A stretch of 27,516 bases of DNA, taken from the IMG/VR virus record IMGVR_UViG_2563366923_000009; one strand, written 5' to 3'. Positions 23,406 through 25,877 of the stretch are shown here, piece by piece; the first letter of the stretch is position 1; every line of letters starts with the position of its first letter. The stretch comes from a virus. Its lineage: Duplodnaviria; Heunggongvirae; Uroviricota; Caudoviricetes. A model generated the notes under the pieces. The model saw nothing but the letters and a program-made list of their open reading frames with translations, searched no databases and had not been told where the DNA came from. The position numbers and the translations under genes were made by a program.

Positions 23406-25877
23406 ATGAGTAAAGTCTTTATTTGCGCCGCCATTCCGGGCGAACAGGCAATAAAGGAAGAAGGTGCCGTCGCTGTAGCCACTGCCATTGAAGCCGGTGA
23501 TGAACGTCGCGCCCGCGCAAAATTTCACTGGCAATTCCTGGAACATTATCCGGCTGCTCAGGACTGCGCTTATAAATTTATTGTCTGCGAGGATAAACCT
23601 GGCATACCCCGCCCTGCCCTCGATTCATGGGATGCTGAATATATGCAGGAAAACCGCTGGGATGAGGAGTCTGCTTCTTTTGTCCCGGTTGAGACTGAAT
23701 CCGATCCGATGAACGTCACTTTTGACAAGCTGGCCCCTGAAGTACAGAACGCTGTCATGGTTAAGTTCGACACATGTGAAAACATCACCGTTGATATGGT
23801 TATTAGCGCACAGGAATTGTTGCAGGAAGACATGGCAACATTCGACGGACATATCGTTGAAGCGTTGATGAAAATGCCAGAAGTTAACGCCATGTATCCG
23901 GAGCTTAAGTTGCACGCCATTGGGTGGGTTAAGCATAAATGTATTCCTGGTGCTAAATGGCCCGAAATTCAGGCAGAGATGCGCATCTGGAAAAAACGTC
24001 GCGAAGGTGAACGCAAGGAAACCGGAAAATACACGTCTGTTGTTGATCTCGCCCGCGCCAGAGCCAATCAACAGTACACTGAAAATTCAACAGGAAAAAT
24101 CAGCCCGGTCATTGCTGCCATTCATCGCGAATACAAGCAGACATGGAAAACACTGGATGACGAACTGGCCTACGCTCTCTGGCCTGGTGATGTGGATGCC
24201 GGAAACATTGACGGCAGCATCCATCGCTGGGCAAAAAATGAAGTTATCGACAACGACCGCGAAGACTGGAAGCGTATCTCGGCATCAATACGCAAACAGC
24301 CTGATGCCCTTCGCTACGACCGCCAAACTATTTTTGGCCTTGTCCGTGAGCGTCCGATCGACATTCACAAAGATCCCGTAGCACTGAACAAATATATCTG
24401 CGAATACCTGACGACAAAGGGCGTGTTTGAGAATGAAGAAACAGACCTGGGCACTGTTGATGTTCTCCAGTCATCAGAAACACAAACTGATGCAGTGGAA
24501 ACTGAGGTATCTGATATCCCAAAAAATGAAACCGCACCGGAAGCTGAACCATCTGTAGAGCGTGAGGGGCCGTTCTATTTCCTCTTCGCAGATAAGGACG
24601 GAGAAAAATACGGTCGCGCAAACAAACTTTCTGGTCTGGATAAGGCACTGGCTGCTGGCGCCACTGAAATCACAAAAGAAGAATATTTTGCCCGAAAAAA
24701 TGGCACATACACGGGCTTACCGCAAAATGTAGATACCGCTGAAGATTCAGAACAACCAGAGCCGATAAAAGTTACCGCTGACGAAGTAAACAAAATTATG
24801 CAGGCAGCCAATATCAGCCAGCCTGACGCCGATAAGTTGCTTGCTGCATCACGTGGTGAATTTGTTGAAGGGATTAGTGACCCGAATGATCCGAAATGGG
24901 TTAAGGGGATCCAGACCCGCGATTCTGTGAACCAGAACCAGCATGAATCGGAACGGAACTACCAAAAAGCGGAACAAAACAGCCCAAATGCGTTACAAAA
25001 CGAGCCAGAAACGAAACAGCCTGAATCAGTGGCGCAACAGGAAGTGGAAAAAGTCTGCACCGCCTGCGGTCAGACCGGCGGCGGCAACTGCCCTGATTGT
25101 GGCGCGGTGATGGGCGACGCAACATACCAAGAAACATTCGATGAAGAGTATCAGGTTGAAGTTCAGGAAGATGATCCGGAGGAAATGGAAGGCGCTGAAC
25201 ATCCACACAAGGAGAACGCTGGCGGCAATCAGCATCACGATAGCGATAATGAAACTGGCGAAACGGCAGATCACTCAATTAAGGTGAACGGTCATCACGA
25301 AATCACATCCACCAGCAGGACGTGTGACCATCTAATGATCGACCTTGAAACCATGGGAAAAAATCCTGATGCCCCGATCATCTCAATAGGTGCAATATTT
25401 TTCGATCCGCAAACCGGAGATATGGGACCGGAATTTAGTAAGACTATCGATCTGGAAACTGCTGGCGGAGTCATTGATCGGGACACCATTAAATGGTGGC
25501 TTAAGCAATCACGCGAAGCGCAATCGGCCATTATGACCGATGAAATCCCGTTAGATGATGCACTGTTACAATTGCGGGAATTTATCGACGAAAACTCCGG
25601 TGAATTTTTTGTTCAGGTTTGGGGAAATGGAGCCAACTTCGACAACACGATTTTGCGCCGTTCATACGAACGGCAGGGGATCCCCTGCCCGTGGCGTTAC
25701 TACAACGATCGCGATGTACGCACAATCGTTGAGCTGGGGAAAGCCATAGACTTCGATGCCAGAACGGCTATTCCATTCGAAGGTGAGCGCCATAATGCAC
25801 TTGATGACGCCCGTTACCAGGCAAAATACGTTTCAGTTATCTGGCAAAAACTGATCCCGAGTCAGGCTGATTCTTAA
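23406..25877 (+). CDS. Large RecE-like prophage protein with C-terminal DEDDh (DnaQ-like) 3'-5' exonuclease domain
   Basis: 823 aa. The central segment ([31 protein letters not shown] ... [31 protein letters not shown] ... [12 protein letters not shown]) matches the linker/zinc-ribbon region of Rac RecE as I recall it. The C-terminal 200 aa carry Exo I (MIDLETMG), Exo II ([11 protein letters not shown]) and Exo III ([10 protein letters not shown]) motifs instead of a RecE-type PD-(D/E)XK nuclease. Confidence 0.8.
   Translation: [823 protein letters not shown]

Follow-up and report, generated by a model that had tools for sequence, protein, structure and literature searches.

RecE (exodeoxyribonuclease VIII) of the Rac prophage is a large protein encoded late in an early-left operon near xis-int, where its gene overlaps recT, and it consists of a long noncatalytic part with an N-terminal PF06630 domain followed by a PD-(D/E)XK 5'-3' nuclease (PF12684, amino acids [aa] 615 to 850). 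T4 DexA, whose structure was solved by Kang et al. (NAR 2025, PMC12153337), is a stand-alone DNase of 227 aa from a virulent phage; the same study described EcD, an Escherichia coli DexA homolog ("HREX") that cuts T4 DNA containing 5-hydroxymethylcytosine (5hmC) but not unmodified double-stranded DNA and that protects against T4, and stated that K-12 has no such homologs. A third relevant setting is the LLS class of lambdoid phages, which have no Rec module, no RecBCD inhibitor, and many Chi sites and which RecBCD helps to grow; in lambdoid phages, DnaQ-type genes are found sporadically "very near int" (Zheng et al., Genome Res 2025, PMC12315714). Here, we analyze a gene in a 27,516-nucleotide stretch of viral DNA (IMG/VR record IMGVR_UViG_2563366923_000009; the whole stretch is called the window below), which is a Qin-type defective lambdoid prophage between ydfJ and rspB. 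The gene encodes 823 aa in one open reading frame (ORF), and, like RecE, its product is large, is encoded late in an early-left operon near xis-int, and joins a scaffold to a C-terminal nuclease domain. It differs from RecE in three respects: the central ~360 aa homologous to RecE lead to a DEDDh domain rather than to PD-(D/E)XK, a YdfE-type module stands in place of PF06630, and recT is absent. It is the full-length form of the K-12 pseudogene ydfE, which retains the first ~255 codons and is truncated by IS2 before the DEDDh domain. We tentatively read the product as a modular phage early protein, namely, a 3'-5' DNA-end exonuclease on a RecE-type scaffold that would act without a phage annealing protein.

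A RecE-type scaffold ending in a DEDDh domain

An earlier note on this DNA, made from the sequence alone, had compared the central acidic linker and the Cys4 zinc ribbon to those of Rac RecE and had recognized in the C terminus a DnaQ-type exonuclease with all its Exo motifs; both proposals held when databases were searched. BLASTP aligned aa 262 to 625 with residues 278 to 591 of RecE (40% identity, E = 9e-63), and from aa 472 onward the match is near-identical, reaching ~90% identity over the KLLAA...KWVKG motif, the ribbon with its four cysteines (C551, C554, C562, and C565), and the acidic tail, in which aa 561 to 600 include 14 D/E and no K/R residues. The similarity stops at aa 625, within the acidic disordered linker ahead of either nuclease domain. 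The NCBIfam RecE equivalog PRK09709/NF007259 matched aa 246 to 625 only (model positions 271 to 602; 282.4 bits compared to a cutoff of 1269), and a Pfam scan found neither of the RecE domains, PF06630 and PF12684, in the 823-aa protein. The part of RecE that is homologous to aa 262 to 625 has no known function (review PMC11611040).

The C-terminal domain matched PF16473 ("Rv2179c-like 3'-5' exoribonuclease") over aa 642 to 813 (E = 2.4e-67; 226.5 bits, cutoff 27) and across profile positions 2 to 177 of 177. The set of catalytic residues is complete, with D646/E648 in Exo I, D743 in Exo II, and H796/D801 in Exo III, and none of the five varies when the domain is aligned with that of T4 DexA (D7/E9/D119/H186/D191) and 11 homologs. 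In an AlphaFold2 (AF2) model covering the C-terminal part of the protein (aa 372 to 823), the predicted local distance difference test (pLDDT) exceeds 90 across aa 641 to 816, and a Foldseek search of this domain against the Protein Data Bank (PDB) returned T4 DexA (8KEL, E = 2.8e-11) first, followed by RNase T, oligoribonuclease (Orn), 3'hExo, REXO2, and ERI, with a probability of 1.00 for DexA, RNase T, Orn, and REXO2. The DEDDh fold anticipated by the earlier note is thus borne out by structure prediction, and by family membership the domain would be a metal-dependent 3'-5' exonuclease.

Upstream of this domain, the predicted protein resembles beads on a string, in which folded elements are joined by low-confidence linkers: an α/β domain and a helical domain, a helical RecE-like segment (aa 245 to 340), a mini-domain, the KLLAA...KWVKG motif, the ribbon (β strands at pLDDT 60 to 75), and finally the DEDDh domain (Table 1). 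The mini-domain does not align with Rac RecE and is conserved in other variants of the YdfE-type scaffold (L092, P0268, and P0249). The first 300 residues had been described as unassigned, which is correct as far as folds are concerned, since Foldseek found no match for the N-terminal 345 aa in BFVD at E ≤ 1e-3; however, aa 1 to 260 form a separate, recurrent module represented by PHROG 5943, by precomputed matches to PF27430/PF27432, and by ydfE.

The family name and the fold neighbors raise the question of substrate. PF16473 is named after an exoribonuclease, and the structures that follow DexA in the Foldseek ranking are RNase T, oligoribonuclease, 3'hExo, REXO2, and ERI; moreover, the TONDO preprint describes ISG20-like, prophage-encoded DEDDh nucleases with auxiliary domains that trim the 3' ends of RNA phages and block MS2 and Qbeta. 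The 823-aa protein could accordingly be an RNA-directed 3'-5' exoribonuclease, similar to Rv2179c or to the TONDO enzymes, that targets RNA phages or the transcripts of host or phage. We regard this as quite unlikely, because (i) the closest characterized relative by both sequence and fold, DexA, is a DNase; (ii) the match to PF00929 (RNase T/ISG20 type) stays below threshold (21.4 compared to 24 bits); (iii) the TONDO proteins were selected as being ISG20-like and shorter than 500 aa and are said to differ from other defense DEDDh domains; (iv) the scaffold to which the domain is fused is that of a DNA recombination nuclease; and (v) relatives are encoded between SSB and Abc2 genes. The founder of PF16473, the chromosomal stand-alone exoribonuclease Rv2179c of Mycobacterium tuberculosis, belongs to the same Pfam family but is a distant relative, as it gave no match in PDB sequence searches at the thresholds used.

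The only solved structures retrieved by sequence search were those of T4 DexA (8KEL and 8KEN; best sequence E = 1.6e-6). At ~27% identity, DexA differs from the 823-aa protein in its extra loops and in lacking a RecE-type scaffold. Of the two DexA residues that recognize 5hmC, Trp152 is matched by Tyr766, in a block that aligns well, and Asp169 pairs with Ala780 in MAFFT, in a loop whose alignment is uncertain and with D782 nearby. The tetramer-forming Asp90 of DexA, the loss of which would speak for an HREX/EcD-type enzyme, aligns with Asp718 in both HMMER and MAFFT, although Ala719 is adjacent and a shift by one residue would alter the pairing. EcD, a DexA-family DEDDh enzyme from E. coli that Kang et al. 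employed in stand-alone form, could be compared by its cloning primers only: its start methionine (M-I-D-T-E-T) is equivalent to M644 (M-I-D-L-E-T), whereas its sequence and its end (T-I-P-E-T-Y) are unlike those of the 823-aa protein. EcD (HAK9828821.1) was not among 384 retrieved relatives, none of which has IDTET or an ETY end. With a 20-mer from the primers, one chance match turned up in IMG/VR, at a site lacking any DEDDh ORF, and another in a metagenome-assembled genome of Acetatifactor; the combined start/end pattern had no match.

These comparisons bear on what we consider the main rival explanation, in which the protein is an HREX-like prophage exclusion or defense nuclease whose DEDDh domain selectively degrades superinfecting phage DNA, for example, the 5hmC DNA of T-even phages, with the scaffold aiding targeting. 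Such a role would explain how the gene has stayed whole in the majority of E. coli genomes and even within decayed prophages: 3537 of 5426 complete E. coli genomes cover at least 80% of its length, and the copy in the defective prophage of the window is intact. It would also suit the position of DexA as the closest solved relative, the reported anti-T4 activity of EcD together with the absence of homologs from K-12 (PMC12153337), which fits the IS2-cut ydfE of that strain, and the combination of a conserved N terminus with exchangeable C-terminal effectors, a pattern often under arms-race selection. Nonetheless, EcD is a different protein, the 5hmC-recognition residues of DexA appear not to be conserved, and the scaffold is common to the recombination enzyme RecE. 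Further, the gene ends a repressor-controlled early-left operon rather than occupying a lysogen-expressed slot, the same domain occurs within canonical Rec modules of other phages, and PADLOC-DB 2.0 yielded only a 12.4-bit match (E = 0.024) to a generic exonuclease effector. On balance, an exclusion nuclease appears unlikely, if far from negligible.

Module exchange and the distribution of RecT

A HMMER search of 1.84 billion representative proteins gave 11,734 matches, most of which are DEDDh domains that either stand alone or terminate long proteins. According to Pfam scans of the long representatives, N termini and nucleases occur in all four combinations: (i) a RecE-type N terminus (PF06630) with PD-(D/E)XK, as in Rac RecE and a 1030-aa variant (L041); (ii) a RecE-type N terminus with DEDDh, as in P0243 and an 813-aa variant (L008); (iii) a YdfE-type N terminus with DEDDh, as in the window; and (iv) a YdfE-type N terminus with PD-(D/E)XK, as in P0257 and a 953-aa variant (L092). 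At least two further C-terminal modules are found on the YdfE-type scaffold. One, of ~240 aa (phrog_7838, labeled "exonuclease"; P0255, P0268, P0295, and P0355), bears a Rad52/Sak-like signature, GEAQKKSLTDAMKKALSLLGFSADIYLG. We did not adopt a Rad52-type annealing domain as its identity, since the Pfam match to Rad52_Rad22 (E = 0.034) falls below threshold and an hhalign comparison with the mEp235 single-strand annealing protein (SSAP), which picked out the same GEAQKKSLTDAMKKAL motif, is suggestive only (E = 0.44), neither match being significant; if the signature is real, the scaffold can carry an annealing protein in place of a nuclease. The other, the ~250-aa C-terminal region of P0249 (702 aa; phrog_26058), had no Pfam, NCBIfam, or PDB match, and P0249 may correspond to the "RecE-2" proteins without a recognizable nuclease reported by Zheng et al. 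(2025, PMC12315714).

RecT covaries strictly with the nuclease type. In a tblastn census of 93 fetched loci—mostly redundant E. coli prophages, so that the counts are not independent—recT overlaps or abuts the stop codon in every PD-(D/E)XK locus with enough downstream sequence (Rac type), and L041 and L092 encode a divergent RecT (PF03837) at the position immediately downstream, whereas RecT occurs in none of the ~50 DEDDh loci. This rule is consistent over three unrelated PD-(D/E)XK/RecT subtypes and two N-terminal types, and the lack of RecT characterizes the DEDDh class in general rather than being a chance feature of one decayed prophage. The earlier note had remarked that no RecT/Bet-like gene adjoins the exonuclease and had suggested a survey of neighbors for a conserved partner; the window indeed contains no RecT, Rad52-like, Erf, SSB, or Abc2 homolog, nor is there any trace of an annealing-protein gene, or space for one, between the ORF and xis-int. 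Homologs of the same five types are likewise absent from HannyBb, Tritos, and PhiR42_1, three complete phages that carry the fused gene. A lambdoid Rec module in the sense of Zheng et al. (2025), that is, an annealing protein (SAP) with or without a nuclease, an SSB, and an anti-RecBCD function in contiguous genes midway through the early-left operon, is found neither in the window nor in these phages. The slot of the DEDDh version, dicB (or kil)-ydfD-exo-xis-int, recurs in prophages that differ in integrase and in attachment site (rspB, potC, or ompW) and also in plaque-forming or induced phages.

Stand-alone DEDDh relatives of ~180 to 190 aa, which are 55 to 60% identical to aa 641 to 823 and lack the 640-aa scaffold, occupy two genomic contexts. 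In the first, the gene directly precedes xis-int as the last early-left gene, as it does in the window; this is the case for a Salmonella prophage, ST64B (sb30), phiNP, mEp460, and phage LLS, whose gp34 ("DnaQ-like exonuclease") is 57% identical. In the second, it lies inside a Rec module that the window does not have, in the order Rad52-like SSAP, SSB, DEDDh exonuclease, and Abc2, as in mEp235, mEpX2, and Bas106, the mEp235 and Bas106 copies being 58 to 59% identical. The "Exo" of epsilon34 is likewise a DEDDh exonuclease within a Rec module (PMC12315714). In one Salmonella prophage (L094, 4743-6570), a genuine stand-alone gene of 189 aa follows a DndB-like (PF14072) gene and a yfdP/yfdQ (DUF2303)/nucleotidase-like cluster, the latter of which LLS has as well. 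We rejected P0186 as another genuine stand-alone protein: this 183-aa E. coli "3'-5' exoribonuclease" corresponds to the final one of three ORFs (456, 157, and 183 aa) into which frameshifts have broken a long gene (L098, 737-3127; GCA_002972015.1), and many database entries for this family are partial or split.

The gene is widespread. Megablast found a match in 4800 of the 5426 complete E. coli genomes, with a median of two places per genome among genomes with any match. It occurs in prophages that are associated with Shiga toxin (Stx) phages and in prophages of O157 type. The full-length gene is also carried by phages obtained through isolation or induction (HannyBb, Tritos, PhiR42_1, mEp460_ev081, the PPompW phages, and Evi). 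Compared pairwise with four homologs (L106, L107, L108, and L103), the ratio of nonsynonymous to synonymous divergence (dN/dS) is 0.12 to 0.24 overall, 0.09 to 0.16 in the N-terminal module, mostly 0.15 to 0.28 in the DEDDh domain, and 0.4 to 0.6 in the linkers; purifying selection acts on all modules. Synonymous divergence (dS) is strongly mosaic along the gene: in the comparison with L107, the N-terminal module has a dS of 0.34 but the DEDDh module one of 0.017, and the corresponding values for L108 are 0.10 and 1.13. So sharp a difference between segments of a single pair points to frequent recombination of prophage copies at module boundaries.

A functionless chimera, produced by recombination between prophages and kept by hitchhiking, might be suspected from the decayed state of a prophage with several insertion sequence (IS) elements and from the many split or truncated copies. 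We consider this very improbable in view of the dN/dS values of the gene and of its N-terminal and DEDDh modules (0.09 to 0.28), the five intact catalytic residues, the full-length copies in plaque-forming or inducible phages, and the conservation of the architecture over different prophage backbones.

A possible role in 3'-end processing

In the 823-aa protein, a DEDDh exonuclease domain of the DexA/PF16473 family is tethered by long acidic disordered linkers to the noncatalytic scaffold of RecE, that is, to the helical segment, the KLLAA...KWVKG motif, and the Cys4 ribbon, with the YdfE-type module in front. According to the reading that we tentatively favor, the enzyme would remove nucleotides from 3' ends, a polarity assigned because all characterized DEDD enzymes have it. 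DNA would be its likely substrate, as suggested by the DNase activity of the nearest characterized relative, by the fusion to a recombination scaffold, and by the relatives that are encoded between SSB and Abc2. The scaffold would bring the enzyme to the site or partner of RecE, most simply the DNA ends of replicating or recombining phage DNA, where it would act without a phage annealing protein. It may perform accessory trimming of 3' DNA ends, for example, of 3' tails or flaps, in recombination-dependent phage replication, and the phages that benefit would be lambdoid phages that have no Rec module and rely on host RecBCD/Chi and RecA. The close stand-alone relatives would do the same job as the nuclease of the Rad52-like SSAP-SSB-Abc2 modules of other lambdoid phages.

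The carrier phages fit this picture in part. HannyBb, Tritos, and PhiR42_1 have 5, 9, and 4 Chi sites, respectively, on the packaging-sense strand and 2 on the other strand; the expectation is below 1 for each strand. They are therefore similar to the LLS class, but two of them have fewer Chi sites than its members typically do. One Chi octamer, GCTGGTGG, lies within the gene itself, on the bottom strand of the DEDDh-coding part (25309-25316 in the window), and is found at the same place in all three phages (L102, L103, and L112).

Several points weigh against the favored reading. An exonuclease that attacks 3' ends would remove the Chi-terminated 3' tail that RecBCD produces. The Chi counts of HannyBb (5) and PhiR42_1 (4) are below the value of at least 8 typical of the LLS class, the census loci are largely redundant, and both substrate and polarity are taken from the family. 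Delivery to DNA ends is a guess, given that the literature assigns no function to the RecE-type scaffold (PMC11611040). DnaQ-like 3'-5' nucleases "curiously, usually inhibit homologous recombination," and the int-proximal DnaQ-type genes are not counted as members of Rec modules (PMC12315714). Finally, EcD was reported to act in defense rather than in recombination (PMC12153337).

More broadly, we speculate that the RecE-type scaffold is a targeting platform for interchangeable DNA-end effectors and that its DEDDh version represents an uncharacterized, annealing-independent pathway, a generalization that we hold to be rather unlikely as it stands. The effectors may then comprise a PD-(D/E)XK 5'-3' nuclease working with RecT, a DEDDh 3'-5' nuclease working without an annealing protein, and possibly a Rad52-like domain. 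The pathway may be a 3'-end step that lets Chi-rich phages without a Rec module exploit RecBCD/RecA, or else a scaffold-targeted exclusion nuclease directed at the DNA of superinfecting phages.

The locus and its significance

The gene closes the early-left (dicB) operon, and the order given by the earlier note, after the dicB genes and before xis-int, was confirmed; near-identical regions of complete E. coli genomes are annotated as ...ydfA-ydfB-ydfC-(DicF)-dicB-ydfD-"exonuclease"-excisionase-integrase-rspB. As that note also stated, the ORF is full length despite an upstream IS1, which is inserted in the same orientation in the spacer between ydfD and the exonuclease gene, 73 bp ahead of the ATG and outside the gene (Table 1). 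With IS1 in between, the gene is probably no longer coupled to the promoter of the dicB operon; a consensus scan revealed no σ70-like site between IS1 and the ATG, the number of sites not exceeding that in shuffled controls. Elsewhere in the prophage, Rfam matches at gathering level comprise IS009, two cspA-type thermoregulator leaders (those of cspI and cspB, which are cold-shock genes), and, at the hokD locus, the sok antitoxin RNA; this is the ordinary Qin gene complement.

Table 1. Features of the 823-aa gene and its surroundings in the window
Feature	Residues (aa)	Position	Strand	Basis or remark
823-aa ORF, RecE-type scaffold plus DEDDh exonuclease		23406..25877	+	ATG start, no internal stops; PHROG 2082 match end to end
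N-terminal α/β domain of YdfE-type module	1-100	23406..23705	+	
Helical domain of YdfE-type N-terminal module	105-205	23718..24020	+	Common to proteins with other C termini
Region homologous to Rac RecE residues 278-591	262-625	24189..25280	+	BLASTP; partial match to NCBIfam PRK09709
Mini-domain, β-β-α-β-α (GPFYF...EITKEEY)	383-433	24552..24704	+	AF2 pLDDT ~90
Conserved motif KLLAA...KWVKG	472-503	24819..24914	+	Common to RecE and short DEDDh proteins (P0204)
Cys4 zinc ribbon (C551, C554, C562, C565)	549-576	25050..25133	+	Sequence; conserved in RecE
Acidic disordered linker	577-640	25134..25325	+	Holds the RecE-similarity junction (aa 625)
DEDDh (DnaQ-like) 3'-5' exonuclease domain	641-816	25326..25853	+	PF16473, AF2, Foldseek
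Catalytic codon	D646	25341-25343	+	
Catalytic codon	E648	25347-25349	+	
Catalytic codon	D743	25632-25634	+	
Catalytic codon	H796	25791-25793	+	
Catalytic codon	D801	25806-25808	+	
DicF small RNA		21934-21985	+	Upstream operon
dicB		22160-22348	+	Upstream operon
ydfD		22345-22536	+	Upstream operon
IS1, 768 bp		22565-23332	+	insA/insB on + strand; 8-bp target duplication CCGGTTTC
xis (excisionase)		25950-26201	+	Downstream
int (tyrosine integrase)		26221-27516	+	Downstream
Rfam matches (IS009, cspA-type leaders, sok)		3343-3541, 7531-7916, 10426-10818, 17664-17835		

The position in an early operon beside the host-takeover genes dicB, dicF, and ydfD also brings to mind a phage counter-defense enzyme, which during early lytic growth would break down an immune nucleic acid of the host that has a free 3' end, for instance, the multicopy single-stranded DNA (msDNA) of retrons, the complementary DNA (cDNA) made by defense-associated reverse transcriptases (DRT), or short oligonucleotide signals. 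The Orn/REXO2-like fold includes enzymes specialized for very short oligonucleotides, and module shuffling is consistent with an arms race. However, no known anti-defense family was matched, and this proposal, to which we assign little likelihood, leaves both the RecE-type scaffold and the Rec-module placement of the relatives unexplained.

Much about this protein was already on record, namely, its components, its annotation, its clustering (PHROG 2082 and the newer Pfam families), the int-proximal DnaQ-type nucleases (PMC12315714), and a DexA-family protein in E. coli. RefSeq names it "exonuclease" or "3'-5' exonuclease," and phage records often call it "exodeoxyribonuclease VIII." The gene is neither rare nor unannotated, and the caution about novelty in the earlier note was justified. 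We found nothing in the searchable literature that describes a RecE scaffold fused to a DEDDh domain, module shuffling in all four combinations, or the covariation with RecT.

These observations matter for understanding RecE. The full-length protein is a standard tool for linear-linear recombineering, and its noncatalytic two-thirds have had no known function for decades. Reuse of this scaffold with a nuclease of predicted opposite polarity, together with the RecT rule, provides a natural experiment on what the scaffold does. The 823-aa protein is also among the most common uncharacterized prophage enzymes of E. coli. If it is a defense nuclease like EcD, it is one carried by most E. coli strains other than K-12; if it serves instead as an accessory to recombination, recombineering could gain an additional tool.

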